Shown: positions 13,997 through 35,490 of the stretch, one piece after another
Layout: every line of letters begins with the position of its first letter
How positions within the stretch are numbered: position 1 is the stretch's first letter
DNA from: Tolypothrix carrinoi HA7290-LM1
GTDB lineage: Bacteria > Cyanobacteriota > Cyanobacteriia > Cyanobacteriales > Nostocaceae
Length of the DNA: 64,000 nt
Assembly: GCA_019358935.1 (NCBI GenBank)
Contig: JAHHIK010000012.1
Coordinates: forward strand, 32,001 to 96,000
Direction of reading: 5' to 3'
Translations under genes and position numbers: made by a program
The notes under the pieces: generated by a model
Database searches by the model: none
What the model was told of the DNA's origin: nothing
The model's input: only the letters and a program-made list of their open reading frames with translations

Positions 13997-14609
13997 ATTT
14001 TCTCGAAATCCCTTCTCCTTCAAAGACGCTCCGCGAACGGGTTCGCCACTTCGACGGGACGGTACAGGCAACCGCCGAGTGGACTCACCGCAACGCATTT
14101 CTGTAGTTGGGACTAGTGGTTGTGGTAAGACGACTTTGGCGAAGCAAATTTCGCAGCGTCTTACCATTCCTCATGTAGAACTAGATTATCTGCACTGGCA
14201 ACCGAATTGGGTGGAAGTGCCGAATGATGTGATGAGAGAAAAAGTTTCTCAAGCGCTGTCGGGCAATGCTTGGGTAGTAGATGGAAATTATAGCATGGTG
14301 CGCGATATTGTTTGGGGAAAAGCTGATACAATTGTCTGGTTAGATTATTCTTTGTCGGTGGTGATGAGTCGTATAGTTTGGCGGACATTTCAACGGGTGG
14401 TGAAGCAACAAGAAGTCTGCAATGGCAACCGTGAAACTTGGAAAACTACTTTCAGCCGTGATTCAATAATTTTATGGGCGCTTCAAACTTATCATAAAAA
14501 TCGCAGGCAATATGCGCTGCTATTGCAAAAACCTGAGTATGCACATCTTAATATAGTGCATTTGCGATCGCCTGCATCTGCACAAAGTTGGTTGTCACTA
14601 ATTCATTAG
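13986..14609 (+). CDS. Adenylate-kinase-like / topology-modulation P-loop protein with a 26-aa repeat-derived insertion
   Basis: RISVVGTSGCGKTT, ELDYLHWQPNW, WVVDGNY and ADTIVWLD motifs. Confidence 0.82.
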   Translation: MKHEFSRNPFSFKDAPRTGSPLRRDGTGNRRVDSPQRISVVGTSGCGKTTLAKQISQRLTIPHVELDYLHWQPNWVEVPNDVMREKVSQALSGNAWVVDGNYSMVRDIVWGKADTIVWLDYSLSVVMSRIVWRTFQRVVKQQEVCNGNRETWKTTFSRDSIILWALQTYHKNRRQYALLLQKPEYAHLNIVHLRSPASAQSWLSLIH

Positions 14610-14613
14610 TATT

Positions 14614-15255
14614 ATGAGTAACTTACAAACCAAAATACCGACTGATACATGGATACCCGCAACGTGGGATGAATACATCCAAGAAATTGAAAATCCGGCA
14701 CGCGAAAAAGCCAAGGGTTACTACTACAACGGCAAAATGAGGATTGAAATCTACGCAATAGGTAATGACCACGCTAGCGACCATACAATAGTTATCCTTG
14801 CTGCTAGCAGCTACGCAGCTATCAAAAACATTCCCATGAATGGCAATGATAACTGCACTTACCGAAAAATAGGCTTTAATGAGGCGCAACCTGATGTATC
14901 TTACTACATTGGTGAAAATGCTGATGTAATTCCTTGGGGAACTTCCATTATCAACCTCGATAACTATCCACCGCCAAATTTAGTGATTGAAGTTGCAAAT
15001 ACTTCTTTAGCAGATGATAAAGGTGAAAAACGTCTGCTGTATGAAGAATTAGGAGTAGATGAATACTGGATTATAGATGTGCGGAATGTCCAAGTTATTG
15101 CTTTTGCCGTAGAAAATAACGGTAGTCGCAAAATTACTCAATCTCTGGTTTTACCTGGTTTAGCAATTTCTGTTTTAGAAGAAGCTTTCCGACGTACTCG
15201 ACAAATGAATCAAAGCCAAGTTGTAGCTTGGTTATTATCGCAATTTCAGCAATAA
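14614..15255 (+). CDS. Uma2 (DUF820) family endonuclease
   Basis: AQPDVSYY, PPNLVIEVANTSLADD and YEELGVDEYWIID motifs. Confidence 0.9.
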   Translation: MSNLQTKIPTDTWIPATWDEYIQEIENPAREKAKGYYYNGKMRIEIYAIGNDHASDHTIVILAASSYAAIKNIPMNGNDNCTYRKIGFNEAQPDVSYYIGENADVIPWGTSIINLDNYPPPNLVIEVANTSLADDKGEKRLLYEELGVDEYWIIDVRNVQVIAFAVENNGSRKITQSLVLPGLAISVLEEAFRRTRQMNQSQVVAWLLSQFQQ

Positions 15256-15302
15256 TATCATTAAAACAGAAAAAGAGGCAATAAACCCCTTTTTCATCAT
15301 CT

Positions 15303-15989
15303 TTACAATCGTTGCAGCAGACTTAAACCGTGGGTATCAGTACCACAAGTGTTGTAAAGATTAAATTCATTAGCTAGCTGTTTTACCTGTTCTGATTCTA
15401 AGACACTTGCTCGCCAAGGATTAGGATTATTGTAGGCGTAATACGTTTCCACACCATCAATACCAGCCTCAGCAGCAGCGGGAATCAAGTCGAAATGCGA
15501 TCGCCTATAACGAGCTGGATGAGCGAGTACCGCTAATCCCCCAGCATTGTGAATCGCTGCAATCACATTAGCTATCTGATAATCTTCGCCAGTAGCAATC
15601 TTTCTTTGCAGATAGCGTTTTATACTGGGATGTTCTGGTTCAAAAGCATAACCCAAAATGTGGACTTCCACATTTAAAAGGTTGGCATGAATTTCTACAC
15701 CACTCCACAGGTGAGGAGAATTTGCACCTGGGTTGTTCCACTTCCAGTCTTCTAACCAAGTTTGTGCTGCTTGGTAGCCGTTAATACTATGATGGTCTGT
15801 GATGGCAAATCCTTTTAAACCAATAGCGATCGCCTGTTCCATCAATGCAGCCGGCTGCAACCTGCCATCAGAATGGACAGTATGCATGTGAAAGTTAAAA
15901 CACCTCGGACAGCTTTGTGCGTCGATGTTCTGGAATACTTCTTTTAAAAGTTCCTTGGAAGTAGAAGTCCGGGCAAAATTTACAGCCAT
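15303..15989 (-). CDS. PHP-domain metal-dependent phosphoesterase
   Basis: FHMHTVHSDG, AITDHH, VHILGY, LAHPARY and GTDTHG motifs. Confidence 0.9.
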   Translation of the reverse strand: MAVNFARTSTSKELLKEVFQNIDAQSCPRCFNFHMHTVHSDGRLQPAALMEQAIAIGLKGFAITDHHSINGYQAAQTWLEDWKWNNPGANSPHLWSGVEIHANLLNVEVHILGYAFEPEHPSIKRYLQRKIATGEDYQIANVIAAIHNAGGLAVLAHPARYRRSHFDLIPAAAEAGIDGVETYYAYNNPNPWRASVLESEQVKQLANEFNLYNTCGTDTHGLSLLQRL

Positions 15990-16314
15990 AACCCCCTCTG
16001 AAAAGTATGCAATCTAACACTCCAACAAGATAGATTTACAGATGACAAATACCAGCACTGTAAATCAGTGTTGGAGCCGCTATTTTTTCAGCTTCATCAG
16101 CAAATTTTTTCAATATGTTAAGACTACGTTAGCAAATTCAAAGGCTGACGGTCATGAGTATTTTCGATGGTAGTTAGGAATATAAGTAACAAATAGAGCA
16201 AGTAATAACCGTAAAAACCGCAGGTAATATCGAGCGGGAATTGTACTTTTGTATAGAGAGAAGCTCTACAACTAAGAAAAAAGTAATCAGTATATAGACA
16301 GAAAATCCTATATT

Positions 16315-17343
16315 TTAGTATGGTAATTCTAATAATTCGCCATTACCAGCAATTACTTGTGCGATCGCATGAGCCGAAATATCCTGTGATTTCAAGTAAT
16401 TAATCGTCACATCTACTTGATTTGGTGGAACTAGCAACACAAATCCAATCCCCATATTGAAAGTGTTATACATCGCTTCGGAACTAACTGAACCAGTTTC
16501 AGCTAGCCACTGAAATACAGGAGGAATAGTCCAACTATCAGGGTTAATTTTAATCGCTTGATTTTTCCCCAAGCATCGCGGTAGATTTTCTGGTAATCCA
16601 CCACCAGTAATATGTGCCATACCGTGAATTTCTAAGCCTGCTTGACGCGCAGCAAGAACCGGTTTGACGTAAATGCGGGTAGGTGTGAGAAAAGTTTCGC
16701 CTAAAGATTGACCGTTGAGTAATTCGGGGCGATCGCTCCAAGATAAATTGCGTTCATTGATAATCTTTCTCACCAAACTAAAGCCATTGCTGTGAACACC
16801 ACTGCTAGGGAGTGCGATCGCTACATCTCCTATTTGCACCTGAGAACCATCTAGCATCTGGCTTTTTTCGACAATTCCCACACAAAAGCCAGCCAAGTCA
16901 TACTCACCCAAAGAGTAAAAACCTGGCATTTCTGCGGTTTCTCCTCCCAGCAAAGCACAACCAGCCAGCTTACACCCAGAAGCTATACCCGCAACCACCT
17001 GAGTTAATTGCTCTTTTTCTAACTTACCTGTAGCGACATAATCTAAAAAAAACAGCGGTTCGGCGCCAGATGTCAGCACATCATTAACGCACATCGCCAC
17101 CAAATCAATACCAACAGTATCATGGCGATTAACAGCAGAAGCGATTTTCAGCTTTGTACCCACACCATCCGTCCCAGAAACCAATACCGGTTCCTTGAAA
17201 CCCCCCGGTAGTTGAAAGCAGCCACCAAAGCCACCCAATCCGCCAATTACTTCCGGTCGAAAGGTGCTGTGAACCAAATTGCGAATTTGATCTACAAAAG
17301 CTCGACCAGCCTCTACATCAACTCCTGCATCCCGATAATCCAT
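16315..17343 (-). CDS. purM: Phosphoribosylformylglycinamidine cyclo-ligase (AIR synthetase)
   Basis: [33 protein letters not shown] and TFNMGIG motifs. Confidence 0.98.
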
Positions 17344-17555
17344 AACACTTAGTCAATAGTCACTGTTTCCACAGTAGATGAGTATAGAGTCAAAAGTACA
17401 TAGTTGGTGAGTTTTTGACTAAGTAGATGGGCATAAATAAACGCTTCGTCAGGTAGTATGGAAAAAGTCCAATGATTCAATAGTTAGGCTGCTTCAGGTT
17501 ACTGCTGAGACATTACTTGGAGGCTCCGCCGGTGAGGTGATTGATCCCTAACTGC

Positions 17556-18461
17556 TCACGTATCATCACGATTTAACTCGCATTGTGTCGTCTTCCGCGC
17601 CAAGTTGAGAAATGCGCTGATGACTGGTGAGGAATCATGCTGCCGCCAAGCCAGATAAAGTCCGGTTTTAGGTATCTGCTCTTGTAAGGGTCTGTAAATG
17701 ACTCCGCTTCTGTGGAAGTTTTGCAAGGAGGCGGGAACGATCGCAATGCCCAGTCCTGCCGCAACTAAGCCGATGATCGTCTGCATCTGAACTGCCTCTT
17801 GAGCCACTTTCGGACGAAATCCAGCTTGTTGACAAATGGTAATAATCTGCTCGTAAAAGACGGGTCCCATTTTGGCAGGAAATAGGATAAATAATTCCGA
17901 AGCCAATGTGGAGAGCGACACTTGAGTCTGGGCAGACAACGGATGGGTTTCTGGCAACGCCAAGACCAATGATTCTGGCAAAAGGCACTCCACACTCAAA
18001 CCTGGTTCGCTGATAGCAGAACGAACAATGCCGATATCAACCTGTTTGTGATGCAGCGCTTGAATCTGTTGAGCAGTCGTCAGTTCATGCAATCGCAGTT
18101 CTACCGCCGGAAACTGTTCTCGAAAGACCCTTACAATCTCTGGTAGTAACGTATACATTGCAGAGTCAACAAAGCCGATCGCCAACCGTCCAACCTCACC
18201 CCGTCCTATCCGTTGTGTCACTGCGATCGCCTGTTCAAGTTGCGCTAACACCAGGTAGGAGCGCTCTAAAAACACTTTGCCTGCTTCGGTAAGCTGCACG
18301 TGTCGCTTCGTTCGTTCAAACAGCTTGACTCCTAGTTCATCTTCCAAACTGCGAATCTGCTGGCTAAGTGGGGGCTGGGAAATGCACAACCGCTCTGCTG
18401 CTCGACTAAAGTGTAGTTCCTCAGCCACCGCGATGAAATAGTGCAGGTGCCGTAGTTCCAT
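17556..18461 (-). CDS. LysR-family transcriptional regulator
   Basis: MELRHLHYFIAVAEELHFSRAAERLCISQPPLSQQI helix-turn-helix; divergent from an SDR gene. Confidence 0.95.
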   Translation of the reverse strand: MELRHLHYFIAVAEELHFSRAAERLCISQPPLSQQIRSLEDELGVKLFERTKRHVQLTEAGKVFLERSYLVLAQLEQAIAVTQRIGRGEVGRLAIGFVDSAMYTLLPEIVRVFREQFPAVELRLHELTTAQQIQALHHKQVDIGIVRSAISEPGLSVECLLPESLVLALPETHPLSAQTQVSLSTLASELFILFPAKMGPVFYEQIITICQQAGFRPKVAQEAVQMQTIIGLVAAGLGIAIVPASLQNFHRSGVIYRPLQEQIPKTGLYLAWRQHDSSPVISAFLNLARKTTQCELNRDDT

Positions 18462-18579
18462 CACACTTATATGTCTAACCTATTAATCTTAGTCAAATAT
18501 ATATTGGACAGTCGCATGGCTGTCTTCTACCGTAAGAAATATGAAGCGTGTCTCACCGTATTTGTATTGGAGAAAACAA

Positions 18580-19461
18580 ATGAACTCAGACAAAAATTGT
18601 GTCGCTCCTAAAGTTTGGTTAATTACAGGATGCTCAACAGGATTCGGACGTGCCCTAGCAGAAGCTGTGTTGAAGAAGGGCGACGAAGTGCTTGCTACTG
18701 CTCGCAAACCAGAGCAACTTCGCGCTTTGATTGAGCACTATCCAGAGACCGCAAAGGCTGTACGTCTAGATGTAACGTTATCCCAAGACACACAAGCAGC
18801 CGTTGATACAGCAATCGCCACATTTGGTCGAATTGATGTGCTGGTCAATAATGCTGGCTATGGACTGATTGGTGCACTCGAAGAAGTCAGTGATGCTGAT
18901 ATTCGCCAACAGTTTGAAACCAACTTCTTTGGGGCACTCCGTCTGATCCGAACTGTCTTGCCTGTGATGCGTCAGCAAGGCAGCGGTCACATTGTGAATA
19001 TGTCATCCACAGCAGGATTAGTGGGATTTGGTGGAAGCAGTATCTACTGTGGCACTAAATTTGCCCTGGAAGGCACATCTGAAGCCCTGGCTAAGGAGGT
19101 TGAATCTCTTGGAATTAAAGTCACTTTAATTGAACCTGGGGCATTTCGCACAGACTTCAACGGACGCTCTCTGGCAGCAGCCGAACAATCCATTGATGCC
19201 TATGTTCCGGTGAGCGGGGCTTCATTGCAGTGGTTCAAAGATATGGATGGTCAGCAACCTGGCAATCCACGATCAGCGGCGCAAGCCATCGTTCAAGCTG
19301 TGGAAAGTCCTCATCCACCGATGCGACTGGTATTAGGCACGGATGCTATGAGCCTGATTCATGAAAAACTGGAATGGATCAAAACGGATTTGGATGTTTG
19401 GCAGCAGGTGACTGTAAGTACGGATTATACAGATAGTAACAGTGAGGTAATAGTTGGGTAG
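18580..19461 (+). CDS. Short-chain dehydrogenase/reductase
   Basis: TGCSTGFG, NNAG and YCGTK motifs. Start placed at ATG 18580 after GGAG. Confidence 0.92.
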   Translation: MNSDKNCVAPKVWLITGCSTGFGRALAEAVLKKGDEVLATARKPEQLRALIEHYPETAKAVRLDVTLSQDTQAAVDTAIATFGRIDVLVNNAGYGLIGALEEVSDADIRQQFETNFFGALRLIRTVLPVMRQQGSGHIVNMSSTAGLVGFGGSSIYCGTKFALEGTSEALAKEVESLGIKVTLIEPGAFRTDFNGRSLAAAEQSIDAYVPVSGASLQWFKDMDGQQPGNPRSAAQAIVQAVESPHPPMRLVLGTDAMSLIHEKLEWIKTDLDVWQQVTVSTDYTDSNSEVIVG

Positions 19462-19495
19462 CTAATACCAGTTCTCTTTGAAGGCGCACAGAATC

Positions 19496-19616
19496 GTAGG
19501 TTGGGGAGCCACTTGCATGGGCGGGTTTCCCGACTTGAGCAAAGTGGCGTTTGAACGGCGTGAAACCCAACGAGTGCTGGATTTTGTTGGGTTTCGTTTG
19601 ACTCAACCCAACCTAC
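19496..19616. repeat. GTAG-type REP-like palindromic element with a nested repeat insertion
   Basis: Termini GTAGGTTGGG...CCCAACCTAC, internal GAAACCCAAC/GTTGGGTTTC; an AGCCACTT...GGGTTTCCCGACTTG...AAGTGGCG unit is inserted in the left arm. Confidence 0.65.
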
Positions 19617-19730
19617 AGTTATATGCAAGTCTAAAGAGACTTTCAACTCAACTAGGCGCGATCGCCCCAACGGTTCGGAAGATAGATAGAGCCAGTCTAC
19701 CCTCTACCCTTTAGCCTCTACCCTTTAGGA

Positions 19731-19886
19731 TGTTATGCAGAAACTTTCGACCTATCCACCCAAATGAGCGTATTATGCGGAAAGATTCGGCTTAAACAGC
19801 GGCTTTGGAGTATTATACAGAAACTTTCTGTCTATCCGCCCACTGCGGATCTTAGGCGGAAACTTTCTGTCTATCAATTGTTAGAC
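19731..19886 (+). other. Array of four ~27-bp imperfect palindromes at 40/40/39-bp spacing, ending at GTTAGAC (putative attI-like recombination site)
   Basis: Units start at 19731, 19771, 19811 and 19850; consensus about TTAtrCrGAA-ACT-TTCkGtCTAT; GTTAGAC at 19880-19886. Confidence 0.55.
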
Positions 19887-19940
19887 AGCTTTAAGTGATC
19901 TGTGAGGACATATTTCAAAGTTGTCGTGAGGTTGCAACAA

Positions 19941-20699
19941 TCAGTTTCGTCCTGCGGTTATGCCACCATCGACGGGCAAGACAACTCCGGTGATCCAACT
20001 GGAACAAGCATCATCAGCTAAAAATAGAATTGCTGCTGTTGTATCCTTGACCTGCCCATTTCGCCCTAACGGATGAAAAGCGTTGAACGACGCAAGTTGT
20101 TCTGGTGTCAGCAAAGGGTCAAATAAAGGGGTTTCAACCACAGCAGGCGCGATCGCATTCACGCGAATCTTGTCGGGTGCAAATTCGATTGCCAGGTTAC
20201 GAGTCAGGGCGTGAACTCCACCCTTCGCTGTTGAAGATCCACTACAGGGCGTTGCGGCGATCGCATGATTTGACCACATCGACCCAATATTCACGATCGC
20301 GCCACTGCCCCGTTGCCGCATTTGAGCGATCGCAGCCTGGGACATGAAAAAGTAGCCCTTCAGTAAGTTCAAATAACTGTCGAGGTCTTCTTCAGTGTGA
20401 TCAAGGAAGGGTTTTGGTTGAAAAACGCCTGCATTGTTGAGCAGCACATCGACACCCCCAAATTGTTCGACGGCTAGATTCACGATGCTCTGACTCGTCT
20501 GAGGGTGTCCAATGTCACCTGCCACGTAGACAACTCTTTCCTCAGTTGGGTCAATAGCATTAGCTGTTTGCGACAATAAATTTTCGCGCCGCCCATTGAG
20601 CACAATTTTCGCTCCCGCCTTGTAGAAGGCGTGTGCCACATCTGCACCAATGCCACTCCCGCCTCCGGTAACTAATACAACTTTGTCTCTCAAACTCAT
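19941..20699 (-). CDS. Short-chain dehydrogenase/reductase (FabG-like; the catalytic Tyr position appears to be Ser, SSTAK)
   Basis: TGGGSGIG, NNAG, IRVNAIAP and ITGVVLPVDGG motifs. Confidence 0.9.
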   Translation of the reverse strand: MSLRDKVVLVTGGGSGIGADVAHAFYKAGAKIVLNGRRENLLSQTANAIDPTEERVVYVAGDIGHPQTSQSIVNLAVEQFGGVDVLLNNAGVFQPKPFLDHTEEDLDSYLNLLKGYFFMSQAAIAQMRQRGSGAIVNIGSMWSNHAIAATPCSGSSTAKGGVHALTRNLAIEFAPDKIRVNAIAPAVVETPLFDPLLTPEQLASFNAFHPLGRNGQVKDTTAAILFLADDACSSWITGVVLPVDGGITAGRN

Positions 20700-20797
20700 G
20701 ACCCTCTCCTAAATTGTTTATGCTTTAGCAATCAAGAGCATAGGAGATGGCGCAAATGCCCGCAAGCAGGCACAATTTTGTCAGGTAGGGTACTTTT

Positions 20798-21160
20798 ATG
20801 AAAGAAATGCAGTCGTTCCAAGACCTAAACGTTTCGGAAAACGTGCGGGATGTTGCCGAGGTTGTTGAGGCAGTATTTGGCTGTAAATGGTCGCTGCGAA
20901 TTTTAGGGTTGATTCGACGAGGGATCTGTCGCCCTGGTGCGATCGAGCGAGAGTTGACAGGCTTAACCCCTAAAGTTCGGAATTACTATTTTCGACGGAT
21001 GATCAAGTTAGGCATTCTGGAACGAGTAGTGTATCCAGCAGTTCCGCCTCATGTAGAGTACAAACTCACGCATTTTGGGCTACGGTTCATGCCGATTTTA
21101 GATTCCATTGAAGCGTTACAGCGTGAACTTGAGGTAGACAGTAAGAAGCAAGGTTTGTAG
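20798..21160 (+). CDS. HxlR-family winged-helix regulator
   Basis: GCKWSLRIL and VYPAVPPHVEYKLTHFG motifs. Confidence 0.9.
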   Translation: MKEMQSFQDLNVSENVRDVAEVVEAVFGCKWSLRILGLIRRGICRPGAIERELTGLTPKVRNYYFRRMIKLGILERVVYPAVPPHVEYKLTHFGLRFMPILDSIEALQRELEVDSKKQGL

Positions 21161-21174
21161 GGTGTTTAACCGCT

Positions 21175-21262
21175 GTCGAACAACCGTGTTGCAGCGGAAC
21201 GTACCAGCCTTCTTCGTTGAGTTGCAAAGGCGATCTGCGTCCGCTGAACACGACCGTTAGGC
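21175..21262 (+). mobile_element. Integron attC-like site 1
   Basis: R'' GTCGAAC, 5-nt spacer, TGTT(G)CAGCGGA pairing with TCCGCTGAACA (one unpaired base), 5-nt spacer, R' GTTAGGC. Confidence 0.75.
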
Positions 21263-21291
21263 CCTACTGCGTATCCTTCACCACACCGCTT

Positions 21292-21675
21292 ATGCCAGAT
21301 CAACCTGCACTCCTAATCGAACTGCTCCGCGCGGCCTACGCGGCCTTTAACGCGCGAGACATTGACGCTGCCCTTGCCCTCATGACTCCGGACGTGGTTT
21401 GGCCGAGAGCATTCAAAGGCGGTTTTGTCCGTGGACCTGAAGAAGTCCGCGCTTACTGGACGGAGCAATGGAGCGAGATCAACGGGCACGTGGAGCCGGT
21501 GACTTTTCACCCGGAGGAGTCCGGACGTATCTTGGTCGAAGTGCATCAGGTCGTGCGCGACCTAGCTGGAGCCGTTCTTGCCGATGAGCACGTCGGTCAT
21601 CGTTTCACCATTGCGCAGGGCTTGATTCAAGCCATGGAAGTCTGTCCGCTTCCATCGTCCGGCCACACAGCCTAA
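21292..21675 (+). CDS. SnoaL-like / NTF2-family protein (gene cassette)
   Basis: AYAAFNARDIDAALALMTPDVVWP...VRGPEEVRAYW motif. Visibly GC-rich; its stop TAA lies inside the GCCTAAC inverse core. Confidence 0.88.
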   Translation: MPDQPALLIELLRAAYAAFNARDIDAALALMTPDVVWPRAFKGGFVRGPEEVRAYWTEQWSEINGHVEPVTFHPEESGRILVEVHQVVRDLAGAVLADEHVGHRFTIAQGLIQAMEVCPLPSSGHTA

Positions 21676-21772
21676 CACGGCGCTCGAGCGAACGCTTCAG
21701 GGCGGCCACCCCGGTTCCGTTCTTCACACCAACAGGCGCCCTGAAGCGTCGCTCAGCTTTGATCCGTTAGCT
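21670..21772 (+). mobile_element. Integron attC-like site 2
   Basis: R'' GCCTAAC; GCT(C)GAGCGA(A)CGCTTCAGGGCG(G)CC pairs with GGCGCCCTGAAGCGTCGCTCAGC leaving three unpaired bases; R' GTTAGCT. Confidence 0.82.
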
Positions 21773-21858
21773 CACGTTAAGAAGTAACCTCCAGATTTTG
21801 ATGAACGTCGTAAATCCATTCCAAGCAAGATAGGGGAGCAACCAACGAAACGCCATTT

Positions 21859-22372
21859 TTGACGCATGCCATCAGTATTAATTTAGAAGCACCAACATGG
21901 CTGGCTCAAGCTGCCTTTCCGATTATGAAGCGACAAAACTACGGACGGATTGTGCTTACGACTTCAGATAGAGCTATTTATCAGCAATATGCACTCAGTG
22001 GTCTCGCCCCTTATGCTATGGGAAAAATGGCACAGATAGGTCTGATGAATGTGCTCGCGGTTGAAGGCAAAGAGCATGGAATTCTCGTTAATGCGATTTC
22101 GCCGGTAGCCAAAACGCGGATGTGGAACGTACACTCCAAAGCCAGAGGATTTGCGACCCGATCAAGTAGCCCCTGGAGTGTTATACCTCGCTTCTTTTGA
22201 ATGCCGAGAGTCTGGATTTATATTAAGGGCAAGCAATGGTCAATTCACAGCCGCGCGCTGGATCGAGCGAAACAACGTGGACTATCCGTTAAACCTTGCC
22301 GCTGTTGAAAGTTCTACTGCGGAGGATTTGGCTACTCGCTGGCAGGAAATTGCTGCGGATGTTGCGTTTTAA
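21859..22372 (+). pseudogene. 5'-truncated, frameshifted SDR oxidoreductase fragment
   Basis: YGRIVLTTS, YAMGK and ILVNAISPVAKTRM in one frame; continues as LRPDQVAPGVLYLAS in another frame after ~22140. No N-terminal Rossmann motif. Confidence 0.75.
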
Positions 22373-22515
22373 GGACTAGGCTTGTACTTCGAGATGGTCT
22401 GTAGGGAAATCGAGATTATTGGTGGGAGAGTAGTTGAAAGAATGTGGGTAAGGGGCGATCGCTTTTCTCCCCAACGCCTTCGGTGAATGAGAGCAATTGC
22501 GAAATCTAGAATCAT

Positions 22516-23249
22516 TGTTGATAAATGATTTATTTCATCAAATCGGGATGAGCCTCAAATAAATGAGTGATTCTACTGAATATCTTTTAGACTCTTTTCC
22601 CGTGCCAATGTGTGATAATATCCGGATATTCAATGTAAAATTAATCAAGTCAGAAGAGTACAGAGGTTAGATTGCATCGAAAAAACGCTATTTTTACGGG
22701 GTTCGAGTTCAGTTATTAACGATTAAAAGTGGTGTCCCAGTTGAGTTTGTCTTCATGCCTGGTAGCGCTGCTGATGTGCGGGCATTAAATGCGTTACCGT
22801 TAAATCTGCCACCAGGTAGTGAAATTTATACTGACTCCGCATACACTGATTATACTTCGGAAGATGACCTGAGAAAGACGAGTCAAATTGAGTTGAAAGT
22901 GATGCGTAAAAAGAACTCTAAGCGTAAAGATGAGCCGTGGAATCAATACATTAAACAATCTACTCGGCATTACCCAATCGACTGTGTTCAGCGCGATTAC
23001 TTGTGTTTTCCCTAAATCGATTCATGCAGTCACATATAGAGGGTTTTTACTGAAACTCGAAGCATTTATTTTTGCCTTTACTCTTCAACAAGCATTTAGA
23101 GAATGAGTTAAATATAATACTTGAATTTGATTCAAGACTTGCACTTTTGATTGAGTCAAAGTCGCGGAGTCGCGGCGGCGCTACCGCCTACTTGTCGTGC
23201 GGTAACGCTCAAAGTAGTACACTTGTATTTAATAACCTGCAACTTGGGT
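22516..23249 (+). mobile_element. Degenerate IS982-like transposase remnant
   Basis: LLDSFPVPMCDNIRI...EEYRG*IASKKRYFYGVRVQLLT...IYTDSAYTDY, with in-frame stops and a frameshift near 22975. Possible right terminus GCAACTTGGGT at 23239-23249. Confidence 0.7.
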
Positions 23250-23319
23250 TAGTAAGGGATAGAGCCGCTTAAAACCTTTATATTTGAGCGGTAAACCGCT
23301 CACCCTTCTCTATGAGACC

Positions 23320-23685
23320 AAGGCGAACGGGTTAGCCAGTCGCTCATGGGGAGCCAGTGCGTTGGGGAGGACACCTGCGTGGGCGGGTTTCCCGACTTGA
23401 GCAGTGTGTCCGTTGAGGCAGTGCGGTCTTGGGGTTTCACGCCACTCCCCTCAAGTCGGGAAACCCTTCCTGTGGGGGTGGCTCCCCAAGTGGAGGAGGC
23501 AGTGCGGTCTTGGGAGCAAATCGCCACTTGCGCGTCTGCCGGGAAACCCGTCCAACGCAGTGGCTCCCCAAGTGAAGCACCTGCCGTCATCTGCCGTCGG
23601 CTCTGCCGACTTGTTCGCGCAGCGTCTCCGCATCTGAGAAGCACCTGGCGTGGAGACCCCCTGTTCTGCGCGCTGGCTCACTACG
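23320..23685. repeat. Mosaic of nested GC-rich dispersed repeats
   Basis: Recurrent units GAGCCAGTGCG, GGGTTTCCCGACTTGA, GAGGCAGTGCGGTCTTGGG (x2) and GTGGCTCCCCAAGTG (x2); similar units occur at 19506, 27007, 42378, 49134 and 56226. Confidence 0.75.
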
Positions 23686-23749
23686 AACTAAGAAATTATT
23701 TTACGTTTAATTTCGCCTACTTCCTTATTGACTCCTAACTTCTAACTAA

Positions 23750-23956
23750 TCAAAATACCTCATTTTCAATACCGCGCCACCATTCCCCCAAATTCATCAA
23801 ATCTTCGTGTATGTCTGCTAATTCACCGGCGTAGTCATTTTCTGAAAGCGTCGCTTGACGTTCTTTGAGCTTTTTCAGTCGCAGTTGCACCAACAGCCAA
23901 GGTTTAGTGATGCTATTCGTGGCTTCGATGTATTCCGCTAGTTCTTTGCTATTCAT
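23750..23956 (-). CDS. Small conserved hypothetical protein
   Basis: 68-aa ORF with KPWLLVQLRLKKL...LGEWWRGIENEVF and native codon style. Confidence 0.65.
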   Translation of the reverse strand: MNSKELAEYIEATNSITKPWLLVQLRLKKLKERQATLSENDYAGELADIHEDLMNLGEWWRGIENEVF

Positions 23957-24000
23957 AAATTTTGATTTTTATTGCACTACCTTTTAAGATACAAGTTATG

Positions 24001-24066
24001 TAGCAATCCGTTTATAATTCGTGAAAAACAAGATACCCGACTTCTTTAAGAAGTCGGGTATCTGAG
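24001..24066 (+). repeat. Palindromic dispersed repeat; a related copy lies at 25014-25083
   Basis: TAGCAATCCG...AAGATACCCGACTTCTTTAAGAAGTCGGGTATCT. Confidence 0.7.
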
Positions 24067-24131
24067 CCGGAAAAACAGCCACGAAAGAAAAATGTTTTCC
24101 GCGTTACAGTGCTGACAAAAAAAGCAGATAA

Positions 24132-24734
24132 TTAAGCCTTAGCTAAATTTTGTGCAACAAAATCCCAGTTTACCAACTGATCTAAGAAGTTCTTGATAAA
24201 GGCAGGACGAGCATTGCGGAAGTCAATGTAGTAAGCATGTTCCCAAACGTCTAGAGTTAGGAGTGCTTTCTGACCATGAGCTAGAGGGTTCTCTGCATTC
24301 GGTGTTTTCGTCACCTTCAGCGTACCATTATCATCAATCAACCAAGCCCATCCGCTGCCAAACTGCGTTGTAGCCGCGTTAGAAAACTCTTCTTTGAATT
24401 TATCAAAGCTACCAAAATCTTTGTCAATTTTAGCAGCTAAATCACCGCTTGGTGTACCGCCGCCTGCTGGCTTCAAAGAATTCCAAAAGAAAGTATGATT
24501 CCAAACTTGAGCCGCGTTGTTGAAAACTCCTGTTAAAGAGGGGTCTTTAAAAGAAATTTTGATCACCTCTTCTAGAGGTTTATCTGCGAGGTCTTTACCT
24601 TCAACGAGCTTGTTAAGGTTATCTACATAAGCTTTATGATGCTTGCCATAGTGATACTCGAAAGTCTCAGCTTTCATGCCATATGGCTCTAAAGCGTTAA
24701 AGTCAAAGGGTAGGGGGTCTTGTGTAAATGCCAT
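24132..24734 (-). CDS. sodB: Fe superoxide dismutase
   Basis: HYGKHHKAY, FNNAAQVWNHTFFW, QFGSGWAWL and DVWEHAYY motifs; the AAQ signature indicates the Fe type. Confidence 0.97.
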   Translation of the reverse strand: MAFTQDPLPFDFNALEPYGMKAETFEYHYGKHHKAYVDNLNKLVEGKDLADKPLEEVIKISFKDPSLTGVFNNAAQVWNHTFFWNSLKPAGGGTPSGDLAAKIDKDFGSFDKFKEEFSNAATTQFGSGWAWLIDDNGTLKVTKTPNAENPLAHGQKALLTLDVWEHAYYIDFRNARPAFIKNFLDQLVNWDFVAQNLAKA

Positions 24735-25298
24735 GAGTGTGAAATCCTCTCTTTACCGTTTTCCAGTTTAAAGCTAATGCTACAGCTTTGGAAATTACAG
24801 GTTTTGTGTTGAGCAATTGAAGATGCTGAACACTGTAAAATAAAACTTTACATTGTTATTTTACTACCAAAGGCAGGATTCAGACAAAGTGGTTTTGTCA
24901 CAATTGAGGTCAAATCTACCTAAATGAATACACAATAAGTAAGAGATTATGCCGATTATGTCTCGATAGATATATTTTGTAATCAAGTAATTTTAATATA
25001 AAATGATCATCTATAGCAATCCGCTCATAAGAGCGTAAACAACAAGATTCCCGACTTATTAAAGAAGTCACCGAATCTGAATCAATGGATTTTTACAAAG
25101 TAATAACTCTAAAAGATAATTATTTTTTCATAAGTCTAATTTTAATAATGGTGAGTAAATGCTCACCATTATATTTAACTAATAACTAACAGTAGATTGT
25201 ATTAACTTAAGGCGAGACAAAGAGCCGGAGTGAATTTTTTAGGATATGTCCCGGCTTAAGTTGAGTAGCGCAGCAATTTGTGTTAATTACAATTGAGA

Positions 25299-26891
25299 TT
25301 ACCTTTGCTGGTAGAAGTCAACAATTTTTGCCGTGACTTCTGAAATTGAGAGACCATCGGTTTGTATTTCAATTGCATCTGCTGCTTTCTGCAAGGGGGA
25401 AACTTTGCGGGTGCTATCTTTCCAGTCGCGTTCTGCGATGTCTTTTTCCAGCTGCTCTAAACTGACTTCGGGTTGACCTTGTTTTTTAAAGTCTTGCTGA
25501 CGACGCCGTGCGCGTTCGCTAACCGAAGCGGTTAAAAAGATTTTGACTTCAGCATCGGGAAAAACGTGAGTACCGATATCCCGTCCTTCAGCAACTAAAC
25601 CACCTTTTTTACCCCAGTTCTGCTGTTGTTTAACTAATGCTTCACGTACAGCGCTTTGTGCGGCTATGGCGGATACTTTTGATGTTACTCCTGGCGTGCG
25701 AATTACCTGAGTAACATCAGTATGATTAATCCAGACTCGCACAGGAGATTGTAAATTTTCGCCTTGAGTCAGTTCAATGACACACAGGTTAGCTAATTCA
25801 GCGATCGCACACTCATCATCCAAAGCAATTTCTTCTTGCAACACTAGCCAGGTGAAAGCTCGGTACATTGCGCCAGTATCTAAATATACTAGACCCAAGT
25901 TCGCTGCCACTTGACGAGCCACCGTTGATTTACCAGCACCAGCCGGTCCATCAATGGCGATGACGGGAGAGCGATCGCGCAGGATGGTATTATCAATCAA
26001 ACGTGTAGAACCAAGACGAGCTGCGATCGCAAGCATTCCTTCCTCCTTAACTTCCTCTAAAGACATCAACGTAGTCGGTTCAACCAATTCAATATATTCC
26101 ACTAAAACAGTAGTGACCATTGCTAGTTCTTGCTCCACCACCGCTATAAGAGTGCTGGTGTTACGAACGCCCGCTTTAAATGCTGCTTCAGCTTGCCGCA
26201 AGCCGCGATATAATGCCGCTGCCTGCTGCTTTTGCGTTGCAGTCAAATATTGATTGCGGGAACTCAAGGCAAGCCCCGATGCTTCGCGCACCGTTGGACA
26301 AGCAACAATTTCTGTCGGCAAATTCAAATCAGCTACTAGCTTTCTAATAATTGCCAGTTGCTGACCATCCTTTTGACCGAAATAGGCTCGATCGGGCTGT
26401 ACCAAGTTTAAAAGCTTGGTAACAATCGTAGCCACACCCTGAAAGTGACCTAGCCGAGAACGACCACACAAGCGTGATATCATAGCAGATGGAGGGATAA
26501 CTTGTGTAACAATTGAATCTTGTATACTCTTCTGCGGAACTCCTAATTCCTCCGGAGAAGGCGCAAAAATCGCATCCACACCAGCTTGTTCACAAAATTG
26601 CCCATCTGCCTTCAAAGTTCGAGGATAGCGTTGAAAATCCTCATTGGGACCAAATTGCAGGGGATTGACGAATATACTGACGATTACCGTGGCGTTTTCT
26701 CGCCGTGCCCGTTCTATCAAGCTTAAATGACCTTGATGCAAAGCCCCCATCGTCGGAACCAGACCAACTGGTGTTTGATACCAGCTGGTTGCCTCATTTG
26801 ATAGCAGTTCCTCCGACTGGCAAAGCTGATTTTCCGAACGACGTTTAGCTAAATAACAGCGTAAAGCTGCAACTGTTGTCAGCAGGCGCAC
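25299..26891 (-). CDS. panC/cmk: Bifunctional pantoate-beta-alanine ligase / cytidylate kinase
   Basis: VPTMGALHQGH, FGQKD and LALSSRN fused to IAIDGPAGAGKST, LDTGAMYR and EGRDIGT. Confidence 0.97.
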   Translation of the reverse strand: MRLLTTVAALRCYLAKRRSENQLCQSEELLSNEATSWYQTPVGLVPTMGALHQGHLSLIERARRENATVIVSIFVNPLQFGPNEDFQRYPRTLKADGQFCEQAGVDAIFAPSPEELGVPQKSIQDSIVTQVIPPSAMISRLCGRSRLGHFQGVATIVTKLLNLVQPDRAYFGQKDGQQLAIIRKLVADLNLPTEIVACPTVREASGLALSSRNQYLTATQKQQAAALYRGLRQAEAAFKAGVRNTSTLIAVVEQELAMVTTVLVEYIELVEPTTLMSLEEVKEEGMLAIAARLGSTRLIDNTILRDRSPVIAIDGPAGAGKSTVARQVAANLGLVYLDTGAMYRAFTWLVLQEEIALDDECAIAELANLCVIELTQGENLQSPVRVWINHTDVTQVIRTPGVTSKVSAIAAQSAVREALVKQQQNWGKKGGLVAEGRDIGTHVFPDAEVKIFLTASVSERARRRQQDFKKQGQPEVSLEQLEKDIAERDWKDSTRKVSPLQKAADAIEIQTDGLSISEVTAKIVDFYQQR

Positions 26892-26965
26892 AAAATACCC
26901 CTAGTTCTTCTTGAGCCTCTCCCCCGTTAGTTTATATCTGAATTCGGGGGAAAAACGAATGAACT

Positions 26966-27216
26966 AGGGGAAATGGGGAATGGGGCATTGGGCATGGGGC
27001 ATGGGGGAGGCAGTGCGTTGCGGAGGTCACGAACGTTGTAGCACCTGCCGTCATGGGGCATTGGGCATGGGGCAGGAGGAAGGGGGAAGGGGAAAAGGGG
27101 AAGGGGGAAAGGGAAAATATTTCTTCTTTCTTGTCCTTTACCCAAAACCCTTTACCCAAAACCCCTCTTCTAATCCCCATTGCCCAATGCGATAGGGCCC
27201 AATGCCCAATTACCAA
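26966..27216. repeat. Mixed STRR heptamer repeats
   Basis: GGGCATT/GGGCATG, GGGGAAA and CCCAATG arrays. Confidence 0.85.
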
Positions 27217-28332
27217 TTACCTTCCTAAGACTTCAATCCGCACTGGTGCTACACCACTGCCCATCATTCCTAAAACGCGGGCAGCGGCAACAGAAAGGTC
27301 AATTACTCGACCGCGAATGAATGGACCGCGATCGTTAATTCGCACTACTACAGAACGACCGTTGCGGGTGTTGGTGACGCGGACTCGCGTACCAAAGGGT
27401 AAATGGCGATGGGCAGCTGTTAGTTTTTCTGGATTAAATCTCTGACCGCTGGCGGTGCGATTGCCGGAACCATCATAGCCATAATAAGAAGCTACTCCCC
27501 TGAGGGAGACTTTCACAGGTCCGACATTAATCTCTGATGGCAATTTTGGTATTGATAGTGGCGATCGCGTCGGTAAGTTAAGAATCTGGTTTAGGGGAGA
27601 AGCATTGCCTAGTAATCTCCGCAAGCGATTGGTGGCTTGCAATGCGTCTTGTGCCAGATTATTGGTTGTGTCTGGCGATCGCGTTTGATCGTTGATTTCG
27701 ACCAATTCTTCGTTATTGACTTTGATGATATAGCGATCGCTCGATGTTTGGTCAGCAGAGACACTTTTATTTTGTGCTTGATTTGTTGTCGCGCTAACAG
27801 CTTTCCAACTGACGATTATTTGACTGGCGTCTACATTTTCCCGGCTTAACTGGTTTATCTTCGCTGCTACTACACCAGCTCTTTGAACCGGGTCATCATC
27901 GCCAATGTTTGTTTGGTTACTAACAAAAGTTATAGTTTCAACACTGGCTTCTTTTACAGAAGTGTCAGCAACAGCATTGTTTGACTGTGTACTTTGAGTA
28001 TCACCACCAGTTACACCAACTTTGGTATCTACTTTGGTTTCTTCGCTCTTGACTGGTGTAGAACTGACAAAGGTGAGAACAGGAATTTTGCGAATAAATA
28101 GCGTTGCAGCTTGACGACCTCCAATATTGTGAGGATGAATTTCCGTAATTACGGCATCCGAGGTAAGGTTCCCTGCTGAGGATTGATACTCTCCCACCTT
28201 GACGATATCGGCTGAAGGTGTTTTTTGGGAAGCGGTATCCGTTTCCTTGGCTGTTTGAGCGCGACCGATTGAGGGCATTCCCAAAACAGTCATAAACAGG
28301 GTGACAATAGTCCACAAATGTCTTTGATTCAT
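27217..28332 (-). CDS. rlpA: Septal ring lytic transglycosylase RlpA family protein
   Basis: C-terminal [18 protein letters not shown] and VRINDRGPF...IDLS motifs; signal-like N-terminus from ATG 28332. Confidence 0.9.
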
Positions 28333-29258
28333 GCGTCCGTTTTTAAAGCGTGTTAAGAACTGAAGGTTTATCTTTCGTGAGATTTTGCACCACAATCATG
28401 TAAAATGCCCCAAAAATTTAAACTCATTCCCATGAACACTTTTTGTTTATAACTGCAACAGATTAACATGAACCTTTTGCCTAGGGGATCAGGGTTGTAT
28501 CGTAACTCTTGGTAAATTTATCAAATTTAAATTTCAATTTTCAGCACAAAACCTTTCCCAAAAGCGGATTTTGGCTGTTTAATAGTTGTCTGGAAAATTA
28601 AAATTTTTCTTAGGGAAACTTAACAATATTTAGTGGATAAATTGGTTTGGATAGTGTCTCCAACCGCTCATCAAGCTAATTGCTGTATGTGTAATATCGA
28701 AAGCAAAAGTTAATGCACAAAATCGCTTAAAAAACAATAGTATTAACTTTAAAATTTTAAATATAAATACTGATATTTTATTAGATTAATCAATTGATTG
28801 CCTTTCATCTCAGAGTATCTGCAAAACTTGAGATTAATTATCTTTTTCAAATAGTTTGATTCTATACAAACCACGAACCACACAGTCTTAACCGATGTTT
28901 GAGAATTTGTCAAATAAGCCTAGCAGTAATTATGAGTACCAATGAAGTTATAATTTTTTATCGTTAGAGAAAAATGAATAATGAGAAAATTAACCAGAGT
29001 TAATTGGCAAATTTTCACTTTATTTGCCGATATAGCGAAAAACTACGGAAAAGTTTCCCCTACGCTAAAACTGGACAAAAAAGGATGCGCCTTCATCCGA
29101 GGCGGCGGTTCGCGCTCCCAGAATCTTCTGTCCGGCGACACGCCTTTGACTGGTGGGGTGTTGAGGATCTTTAAAACAAGGCTGTCCAATTTTGTCTGAC
29201 TTTTTGGAACCCCGCATCGCCTTTTTCTAGCCTAATTTTTACTCTTTCAGCTGCACTT

Positions 29259-30226
29259 GTGATGGGACAAGAAAATTTAGAAGCTGTTCTCAACGACTTG
29301 CATTGCAAATACAAGTCACTGCAAGATGGTGCAGTAGCTAAATATATACCGGAATTGGCAAAGGTGAATCCGGAGTTGTTTAGCATCTGCGTTGTAACTG
29401 TTGATGGTGAGGTTTACCAAGTTGGTGATGACAAACAGTTATTTACAATCCAGTCGATTTCCAAGGTGTTTGCATATGGACTTGCGCTTGAGGATCATGG
29501 ACGGGATTATGTTTTAACTAGGGTTGGGGTGGAACCGACGGGAGATGCATTTAATGCAATTATTCTAGATGAGCAATCAAATCGACCATTAAATCCAATG
29601 GTAAATGCGCTCCGCGATCGCCACCACCAGTTTAATCAAGGGTAATGGTGCAACCGAACGTCTCAATCGAATGTTGAATATGTTTCGCGGATACATCGGT
29701 CATGATGTATTCGTTGACATCTCCGTATTTACCTCAGAGCGCTCCACCGGACATCGCAACCGGGCAATGGCGCACTTAATGCTAAACTTTGGCATGATCG
29801 ATCCTAACATTGAAGAATCGCTGGATTTGTACTTCCAGCAATGCGCGGTGATGGTAAATTGCTACGACTTAGCAGTTATGGCAGCTACTTTGGCGAAACA
29901 TTGGTATCAATCCGGTTACAAAAGAGCGTGCCGTGAATAGCAGTTATATAAAAGACATTTTGAGCGTCATGTATACCTGCGGCATGTATAATTTTGCCGG
30001 GGAATGGGCTTATAAAATCGGTATTCCTGCGAAAAGCGGTGTTTGTGGTGGAATTATCGCTATAGTACCAAATAAGATGGGAATCGGAGTATTTTCGCCG
30101 CGTCTTGATGCGCGTGGTAACAGTGTTCTGTCGTTGAAGGTGTGTGAAGAACTTTCCCAGCAGTTAGGCTTACATCTATTTGAGTGTTCGCGCAATAATT
30201 TCAAGTCGGGAGATTTATGTAATTAA
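29259..30226 (+). pseudogene. glsA: Glutaminase A, split by two +1 frameshifts
   Basis: FTIQSISK, NPMVNA|AIATT, MAATLA|NIGINPV and PAKSGVCGG motifs distributed over three frames; shifts at ~29610 and ~29897. Confidence 0.85.
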
Positions 30227-33900: not shown

Positions 33901-35103
33901 ATGATTCAATTAATAGAAAAAGCTCCGGAAAAACGGTTGCGTCTTCAGTATTTAGATGGCTTACGTGGACTGGCAGCAGTGTATGTGGTACTTGTCCATA
34001 TCGAACCATCTATAGGAGAACAATTGCCTAATTGGTTGCAACTTTTTATCAAAACATTAAGATATGGTCGCGTTAGTGTTGTAGTGTTTATTATACTTTC
34101 TGGCTACGTTTTGATGGCATCAGTAGTTCGCTCGCCAAACGGTTATGTAGCTGGAGGTTTGTTGGGTTATATTAAGCGGCGATCGCGTCGAATTTTACCA
34201 CCATACTATGCTGCTCTTTTTTTCTGCGTCTTACTAGCAGCAGCAATATTTATATTAGAGAAATTTACTAATTTTCAATGGAATGAAATAGCTGGTAAAG
34301 GTCCATTTTCTCCTTACTTTTCCTTGAGTGATTTCTGCTCTCACCTGCTACTAATTCACAATGTTATTCCAGGTGCCTATATGTCCATTAATCCACCATT
34401 GTGGACAGTGGCTACTGAATGGCAGTTATACTTTATATTTCCGCTATTCTTACTACCTATATGGCGACGTTTTGGATTAACTTCAGTTGTTATCGCTGCT
34501 TTTTTAATTGGAATAGCACCCTTATATCTTTTCAATGGATTGTTTGAAACAGCTAGTCCTTGGTTTCTTGGTTTATTTGCCTTGGGAATGGCAGCAGCAG
34601 ATATTGGACTTTCGCAAAAATCGAAGTTAATTACTATTAGAAATTCTCTCCCGTGGGGTGTATTGACAATTATATTTACTGGCGTAGCTTTTTTAACTGA
34701 GTGGCGAAAATTGGGATTGCATATATGGATTAGTGAAAGTTTTTTTGGTCTGGCATCTGCTTGTTTATTTATTTACTGCACCAAGTTTGCGATCGCTGAC
34801 AAAAAACTACCTTCAATTCTACGTGTATTTGAGCATCCGATTGCGATACTCTTTCAGAGTCACTTCGTGAACGCACTCGGAGTATTTTCTTATAGTCTCT
34901 ATCTCACTCATGGACCAGTATTAGTATTGGTACGTTACTTTCTTTTTAGTCTGCAATTATCTCCAGTATTATTTGCGGTTACATCTTACACATTAGGTCT
35001 GGCAACGTCGTTAGTAATTGCTTATTTGTTTTACTTACTTTTTGAAAGACCATTTATGTCTGGTTTCTTAAAGAAGCGGAAAGTCAAAGATGCAGTAAGT
35101 TGA
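33901..35103 (+). CDS. Acyltransferase-3 (OafA-like) membrane O-acyltransferase, paralog 1
   Basis: LDGLRGLAA, FIILSGY, RRILPPYY, LWTVATEWQLY, SYSLYLTH and FERP motifs. Confidence 0.92.
   Translation: MIQLIEKAPEKRLRLQYLDGLRGLAAVYVVLVHIEPSIGEQLPNWLQLFIKTLRYGRVSVVVFIILSGYVLMASVVRSPNGYVAGGLLGYIKRRSRRILPPYYAALFFCVLLAAAIFILEKFTNFQWNEIAGKGPFSPYFSLSDFCSHLLLIHNVIPGAYMSINPPLWTVATEWQLYFIFPLFLLPIWRRFGLTSVVIAAFLIGIAPLYLFNGLFETASPWFLGLFALGMAAADIGLSQKSKLITIRNSLPWGVLTIIFTGVAFLTEWRKLGLHIWISESFFGLASACLFIYCTKFAIADKKLPSILRVFEHPIAILFQSHFVNALGVFSYSLYLTHGPVLVLVRYFLFSLQLSPVLFAVTSYTLGLATSLVIAYLFYLLFERPFMSGFLKKRKVKDAVS
34848..34871 (+). mobile_element. 24-bp small dispersed repeat inserted in a HIP1 site
   Basis: GCGAT[ACTCTTTCAGAGTCACTTCGTGAA]CGC; two mini-hairpins with TTC loops; in frame. 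Confidence 0.75.
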
Positions 35104-35294
35104 CCAAATAATTATTAATTCATAATTCATAATTCATAATTAAAAAAATGGGTATTTGCGCGAACACGCTCATTAAAAATAAGCTAAAATTTCTTAAGCT
35201 AAAAGTTCAAGCTGACACTGATTGAAGTTAGGAATTATTAATTATTAATTACATTAATACAGTAGGTTGAGCTACTATTTATTTTCACATAATT

Positions 35295-35450
35295 CAATAC
35301 GGTTCAGTTAAGCATTTTTTCCTTCTCTCTGTGTCGCGCCAGTCGCTACAACGGGGGGAACCCCCGCAACGCGCTGGCTTCTCTGCGCCTCTGCGGTTCG
35401 TTAAAAAATTGACTTTGACAAAGAGTTTTAACCTTAACTGAACCGTATTT
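35295..35450. mobile_element. 156-bp MITE (Nezha-like geometry)
   Basis: TIRs CAATACGGTTCAGTTAAG / CTTAACTGAACCGTATTT; 10-bp direct repeat TCACATAATT on both sides (35285-35294 and 35451-35460). Confidence 0.88.
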
Positions 35451-35490
35451 TCACATAATTAGCAAAAAAACAAAACAGGATGTTAATTTA

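Follow-up and report, generated by a model that had tools for sequence, protein, structure and literature searches.

The window analysed here is a stretch of 64,000 nucleotides (C12:32001-96000) from the genome of Tolypothrix carrinoi HA7290-LM1 (G000; 7.96 Mb in 184 contigs, 99.65% complete), which contains HIP1 sites and has Nostoc-type cyanobacteria as its nearest named matches. The window carries four phased palindromes at the head of two gene cassettes and no integrase gene beside them. This raises the question of whether the palindromes form a novel, inherently integrase-less insertion platform, as a sequence-only reading had proposed, or the recombination site (attI) of an integron whose integrase gene (intI) has been lost. 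Of all parts of the integron, attI is understood least. In the available portions of the literature, its sequence is stated to be unknown for most integrons (PMC4889954), its recognition to be poorly known, with accessory domains at some sites (PMC4792948), and its binding sites to be undefined even for attI2 (PMC12901181).

Phased arms upstream of a simple site

Re-reading of the letters placed the four palindromic units at 19731, 19771, 19811 and 19850, and a repeat search returned a single family there (4 x 40 nt, spacing 40/40/39), which bears out the 40-bp periodicity first noticed. The units resolve into arms (Table 1), the forward ones beginning at 19733, 19773, 19813 and 19852 and the reverse ones ending at 19755, 19795, 19835 and 19874. 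Relative to the crossover, forward starts are at -147, -107, -67 and -28 and reverse ends at -125, -85, -45 and -6. Tail-to-tail gaps are 5 nt and head-to-head gaps 17, 17 and 16 nt. The description of the intervals as unrelated 12-13-nt spacers does not hold: from arm to arm they measure 16-17 nt, and across homologues they keep a fixed length and a CC...GG pattern.

Three bases past the last unit, at 19880, begins GTTAGACAGC, whose reverse complement matches the inverse core of attC1, GCTGTCGAAC, at 9/10 positions; the GTT core is, as had been suggested, the left junction of cassette 1, with the crossover at G19880/T19881 (a slash marks the crossover throughout). Inverted L and R boxes, a spacer within 6-8 bp and an R box of the form GTTRRRY are all found here, and the eighth arm, the 6-nt spacer and GTTAGAC together read as a simple site of the tyrosine-recombinase type. 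With the upstream arms included, the window site would hold about nine candidate enzyme-binding boxes, against the textbook four.

Table 1. Coordinates of the array, the cassettes and the surrounding outer cassette in the window.
Feature	Position	Strand	Remarks
Degenerate attI-like site	17452..17489	+	crossover G17483/T17484; left junction of outer cassette
Outer cassette, 5' part	17484..19465	.	LysR + SDR1
LysR regulator	17556-18464	-	in outer cassette 5' part
SDR1	18541-19461	+	in outer cassette 5' part
Non-coding leader	19613..19732	+	HIP1 site, short tandem duplication; common to many orphan copies
Array of eight 9-bp arms	19733..19874	+	consensus TTATRCRGA, orientation alternating
attI simple site	19866..19886	+	L arm 19866-19874, 6-nt spacer CAATTG, R box GTTAGAC
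Cassette 1	19881..21256	+	1376 bp
SDR oxidoreductase, cassette 1	19941-20699	-	Pfam scan of ORFs
HxlR regulator, cassette 1	20798-21160	+	Pfam scan of ORFs
attC1	21175..21262	+	69.8 bits, E 3e-13 with a covariance model whose training left the window out; bottom-strand fold
Cassette 2	21257..21766	+	510 bp; SnoaL-like protein
attC2	21670..21772	+	covariance model: 30.1 bits, E 2e-4; fold z -5.3
Outer cassette, 3' part	21856..22516	+	second SDR (SDR2), 5'-truncated

The attC sites were sought with a covariance model built on 15 sites from other loci, in place of a strict hand-made grammar that was dropped as insensitive (16/49 loci, attC2 missed). Across the 64 kb the model matched two sites, both downstream of the array, and it did not match the array itself; no Rfam family matched within 18000-26000 at E up to 1. 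The SnoaL-like ORF of cassette 2 ends at 21675 and has a likely ATG at 21292. On the array's opposite flank, the non-coding leader occupies the place that intI takes in complete integrons. The possibility that it is an intI remnant on the minus strand was rejected on reading that strand.

A matrix of three phased dyads derived from other loci scored the window array at 76 bits and a second array of the same genome, on contig C28, at 68 bits. The next-best scores across the 7.96 Mb were 24 (C43) and 14 (C50), and both resemble relics of the same site.

The same architecture beside intI

A search of the phylum for IntI matched 25/401 genomes at E up to 1e-50, and 28 of the 30 returned loci were taken (L041 has no upstream DNA). 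Five or more arms stand upstream of intI at 12/15 loci outside families f38 and f48, at 0/5 in f38 and at 0/7 in f48; by eye, the array was seen at six further intI loci of the family to which the window belongs. In most of the non-picocyanobacterial integrons examined the array has the start codon of intI on one side and the first cassette on the other. Since the same phased architecture occupies this position in most of these integrons, the window feature is, as judged from its sequence, a long, clade-typical attI orphaned of its intI and not a new platform. The sequence-only reading was right in seeing an attI-type phased array of candidate binding sites without an adjoining integrase; its novel, inherently integrase-less platform gives way, the same array being the normal attI of integrons that possess intI.

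The closest intI-linked array found, and the only plasmid match to the window array, is that of plasmid pB of Kovacikia minuta CCNUW1 (NZ_CP083584.1), a complete integron with an intact 320-aa integrase, WP_224346711.1. Its array is 72% identical to that of the window, with four dyads, the same 6-nt spacer and 5 attC matches downstream. The intact intI and at least five attC matches set it apart from the window locus, and its attI is unannotated in the PLSDB gene table shown.

A second anchor was the last dyad plus core, a pattern found in at least 120 stretches; the 80 listed, minus 1 duplicate and 17 not titled cyanobacterial, left 62 loci. Among the matches listed, intI occurs at 17/62 loci (6 full, 11 fragments), always divergent and starting 166-281 nt from the G, and at none of the 62 is it downstream or reversed. 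A same-strand attC lies downstream at 30/49 of those listed loci that have at least 1.5 kb there (16/35 without training loci), as against 1/49 on the opposite strand and 4/54 upstream. The motif scan proposed earlier has in this way brought out the link to attC sites and recombinase genes. The bases after GTT agree with the inverse core of the first attC at 5.41/8 positions, compared with 3.78 on permutation (0 of 10000, n = 32).

This strict link to attC and to the position and orientation of intI bears on whether a different enzyme uses the repeats, which would then be Xer-like recombinase sites, a res site or the end of a transposon. An 11-6-11 shape and an arm end CGCATAA are indeed reminiscent of the XerC arm of dif, and G000 encodes many tyrosine recombinases other than IntI (13 places over the PF00589 cut-off, at near-full coverage). 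Besides the link to intI and attC, however, no recombinase or transposase Pfam family was found among the 32 window ORFs scanned, and the listed inverted repeats include no inverted second end in 14000-30000. We regard this explanation as very improbable.

In a quick IntI tree (midpoint-rooted, one row skipped for stops) the long arrays fall within a clade of 20 rows (SH-aLRT 93) that holds most cyanobacterial enzymes. Its sister group, metagenomic and of 49 rows, has 0-7 arms; IntI1 and the f38 enzymes lie outside. No dyads were found at the 11 scored loci with IntI-like genes on viral contigs. Three records titled Chloroflexota or Thermoflexales (L099, L105, L060) contain the same core, with intI upstream in two, from which it appears that the architecture extends beyond cyanobacteria. 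At L020, L022, L028 and L170 a LexA-type box, with one mismatch to what we take to be the cyanobacterial consensus, lies about 40-50 nt upstream of intI in a similar position; SOS control of these integrases is possible.

The geometry is regular. In 100 intI-anchored regions, tail-to-tail gaps are 5-6 nt in 78/106 cases and head-to-head gaps 16-18 nt in 66/97, and the core spacer is 7 nt in 31/45 and 6 nt in 6/45 IntI-linked cores (6-7 nt in 37/45); the long gap equals the core gap plus about ten bases. Across homologues the long spacers keep CC...GG (CC 80/65%, GG 67/85%), which creates a second dyad axis. The strand is foldable (z -3.0 and -2.0), and complementarity within the long spacers amounts to 116 pairs versus 110 permuted (1106/5000 permutations reach the observed value). 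A hairpin or covariation model of these spacers found no support, their partial palindromy stemming from the conserved CC and GG. As this palindromy does not covary, double-stranded binding is favoured over hairpins. One consensus describes both the upstream arms and the L arm of the simple site. Its T2, C6 and G8 recur in the R and L boxes of attC (32 sites), a weak likeness whose register is partly circular. One unit is missing from 5/14 close copies and four dyads are therefore not required.

We propose a layout in which seven further arm copies, spaced roughly every 20 bp, stand ahead of a simple site (L arm, 6-7 nt, R = GTT), and in which a single IntI monomer may bind each arm as double-stranded DNA. 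Paired accessory arms would face each other across 16-18 nt, about one helical turn more than the core spacer, and because of this added turn they would lie on the same face and yet too far apart to cleave. Through the accessory arms IntI could be loaded, or the synapse between attI and attC stabilised and filtered, in the manner of DR1 and DR2 of attI1. A separate arm-binding domain would appear to have no room, since the 320-aa Kovacikia integrase is nearly all covered by the IntI profile.

Alternatively, only the last dyad would be attI, and the upstream dyads would be an operator or promoter array for a host protein that controls intI or the cassettes, possibly reading CC-N5-GG. The array does fill the intI promoter region, CC and GG are conserved in the long spacers, two weak sigma-70-like matches lie in the array (one per strand; 0.5 expected), and many homologous reverse arms read TATAAT. 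Against this, the upstream arms match the L-arm consensus and have letters in common with attC boxes, and the long arrays track one IntI clade and not the host family, the f38 integrons being without them. For these reasons an operator array seems unlikely to us.

The proposed role of the arms has its closest precedent in attI1 of class 1 integrons, which, in the accessible parts of PMC12901181 and PMC8946536, is a 65-bp site made up of an L box, an R box and two direct repeats, DR1 and DR2; all four regions are bound by IntI1, and recombination between attI and attC is favoured by the direct repeats. A plasmid record places the attI1 boxes at -50, -31, -7 and +1. Common to attI1 and the window site are a double-stranded simple site, the G/TT crossover, accessory box copies upstream and, in relatives of the window, a divergent intI. 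DR1 at -31 compares with the nearest forward arm at -28, and GATGTTA is common to DR1, DR2 and the first window unit. The likeness to the direct repeats is, however, positional with a few letters, since DR1 and DR2 score -0.1 and -1.4 bits on the cyanobacterial arm matrix. The sites differ further in length (about 150 bp for the window array and up to about 280 bp in relatives, against 65 bp) and in layout, seven accessory arms alternating with a 40-bp period in place of two direct repeats. The L arm of the window is a good inverted copy whereas that of attI1 is degenerate, and the window has no intI in cis.

Among other attI, excerpts of the respective sources describe the Vibrio attIA as without repeats (PMC8946536), a putative Treponema attI with DR1/DR2 (10.1101/2020.05.09.085589) and an archaeal attI (10.1101/2022.02.06.479319). 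Integrons or attC in Cyanobacteria are mentioned in passing in the accessible text of PMC4889954, PMC2426708 and PMC8352920. No description of a multi-dyad or a cyanobacterial attI was found in the searchable portions of the full-text literature outside subscription journals. What appears novel is the alternating, helically phased set of accessory arms, its orphaned state and its nesting in a cassette. The natural series of about 2-15 arms is well suited to testing the role of accessory IntI sites.

Orphan copies and probable exchange of the first cassette

No IntI was found over the TIGR02249 cut-off in the 184 contigs of this 99.65% complete genome. Its only IntI-like trace is a 23-codon intI stub (the N-terminus) on C28, directly preceded by the second array (C28:40066-40200), which has a GTTATGC core and attC on the far side. 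The window copy has no adjacent intI; homologous arrays do. A complete integron, with intI, attI and at least one attC, is absent from G000, and the window locus, with two attC and no neighbouring intI, falls under the definition of a CALIN.

The C28 region (C28:39265-40390, L307) comprises three clear dyads and degenerate ones, one cassette with a 183-aa ORF, which we take to be MOSC-like, and attC. At C43:10493-13469 (L308) a single dyad with a GTTAGGC core is followed by an attC whose inverse core matches, and the element between them resembles IS607. At about C50:40450-40510, a relic of part of an array has two arms separated by a 17-nt spacer. Six more attC model matches (C96, C90, C9, C59, C6, C2) have no attI core within 4 kb upstream.

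A search of 301 genomes of the family found 14 further copies in 13 others, at 84-98% identity, and G011 retains the last unit and core, which brings the total to 16 intI-less copies in 15 genomes, the window included. None of the orphan loci inspected has intI, and a genome-wide search placed no IntI-like match (at least 60% identity) beside them. Across 19 genomes with related arrays, the only full, uninterrupted IntI is that of G022, which has no array upstream, and hence no cognate trans-acting enzyme was found. G022 itself was rejected as a trans donor (context GC-rich by eye, no array). The core pattern is present in 113/301 family genomes (reversed control in 17), and IntI exceeds the cut-off in 13/301; phylum-wide the pattern occurs in 35/251 genomes and in 0/7 f38 genomes.

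The 16 orphan copies carry 8 different first cassettes, all joined at the same G/TT. The SnoaL cassette comes first in 8/16, an arrangement equal to the window minus cassette 1, and cassette 1 is precisely absent from 8/15 near-identical copies. The joint from 19879 to 21256 (1376 bases skipped) is present in contigs from 2/4 public runs, and the window form in the run that may be the source of the window; such contigs speak for presence only. In this weaker form the integrase-less insertion platform of the earlier reading stands: which first cassette follows varies between near-identical orphan copies, and the change falls exactly at G/TT.

The attI might instead have been inert since intI was lost, its first cassettes having arrived by homologous recombination from intI donors or having been fixed earlier. 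In keeping with this, neither G000 nor the 19 carriers provide a cognate IntI, and divergence is mosaic, as expected of spread by recombination: array copies differ at 0-5 of 109-148 bases and SDR1 third positions at 6-21%. Orphan sites also have left ends anywhere between about -26 and -310, a scatter in line with decay. On the other hand, eight first cassettes are joined at one G/TT, where gain or loss uses attI as a partner, and the closest intI-linked array found is just 72% identical. An inert site thus strikes us as improbable, to much the same degree as an operator array.

A fixed left end, as of a minimal mobile element, did not emerge: the ends scatter, only 3/64 queries (L068, L115, G000 C43) end at -55 to -61, and many references are too diverged. 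At L014 (G011 C94) unrelated DNA resembling a group II intron remnant stands in place of most of the array, and the last unit and core stay. In a test for selection, arms are not set apart from spacers in the orphan copies (p = 0.27) when a 5-bp inversion is counted once; this inversion, in one copy, drives a nominal p of 0.034 for arm conservation. A 44-nt neighbouring intergenic control is conserved as well as the orphan array.

We favour, with a probability of roughly 0.7, reading the array as attI from a lineage of cyanobacterial integrons, its arms binding IntI, its own intI lost and its cassettes exchanged in trans. An attI of the Kovacikia-plasmid type with a SnoaL cassette would have lost intI. 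The orphan attI and its SnoaL cassette would then have displaced the central part of a LysR-SDR1-SDR2-attC cassette of greater age. The composite would now be patchily distributed across genera, its first cassette being exchanged at G/TT, most simply by IntI in trans. Such arrays are candidates for asking whether integrase-less arrays are still fed in trans. It is conceivable, though we lean against it, that orphan multi-box attI are functional satellite integrons whose long arrays capture IntI from a visiting plasmid; the window copy, travelling within a gene cassette, would make of it a cassette that recruits further cassettes. If true, filamentous cyanobacteria would possess a dispersed integron system in which docking sites (113/301) far outnumber integrases (13/301).

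The window locus resembles the CALIN as presented in the available text of Cury et al. 2016 (PMC4889954) in having two attC and no neighbouring intI; unlike a plain CALIN, it is still headed by an attI that is complete and recognisable, and it lies inside another cassette. According to the same text, the accompanying tool matches only attI of classes 1-3, and exactly, so that the window attI would escape it. The constant 5/17/7-nt spacing offers a search motif for cyanobacterial insertion platforms that current tools file as plain CALINs.

Nesting in an older cassette

The LysR-SDR1 segment was matched in 35/301 genomes, and 17/39 matches begin exactly at the G17483/TT base. Behind this outer G/TT lies a full attI array in G288 and G497, an attI dyad or core in G016, G472 and G549, attC in G507 and secondary sites or other DNA elsewhere. 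In array-less relatives (G507, G551, G536) a second SDR follows, intact and 285 aa long; the window has 19466-21855 in place of the beginning of SDR2. The terminal attC of the outer cassette is present in G009, G003 and G532, its inverse core being an exact 10-base complement of the left junction in G009 and G532, with one base changed in G003. The attC covariance model did not detect this site in the window. G532 has the inner array with SnoaL and the terminal attC, without the left junction, and in no examined copy do the left G/TT, the inner array and the terminal attC occur together. Within the genus, the chromosomal site of the window has the array in G000 and G005 and none in G009, G001 and G003.

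By these alignments, the window array is nested in an older LysR-SDR1-SDR2-attC cassette that starts at G17483/TT. Given how much less the array has diverged than the third positions of SDR1, homologous recombination between resident cassettes is probably another means by which the inner module spreads. In the accessible parts of PMC12901181 and PMC8876359, delta-attI-type or fused cassettes carry attI in a cassette-like mobile unit, as in the window. In those cassettes a truncated attI replaces attC, whereas the window has a complete multi-box attI with its own cassettes inside a cassette, and the cassette that nests an attI of the window type still ends in attC in G532. With an attI nested in a cassette, integron platforms would have one more way of spreading without intI.

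The end of SDR1 (19445-19460) contains TAATAG/TTGGG, and in G003 and G536 (L368, L382) other DNA starts with TTATGC or TTAGGC right at this G/TT, which suggests a secondary cassette insertion site. Where relatives carry the attC of the outer cassette, the window has 22517-23015, which we take to be a transposase remnant; ORF 22755-23015 has no Pfam match. REP-like GGGTTTCCCGACTTGAG repeats occur at 19501-19610 and 23347-23571, and their copy number and inserts vary strongly among relatives. Further along the window, a glutaminase gene is split over three consecutive ORF pieces (29259-30226), and two tandem 400-aa acyltransferase (PF01757) genes occupy a low-GC stretch (33901-36693).
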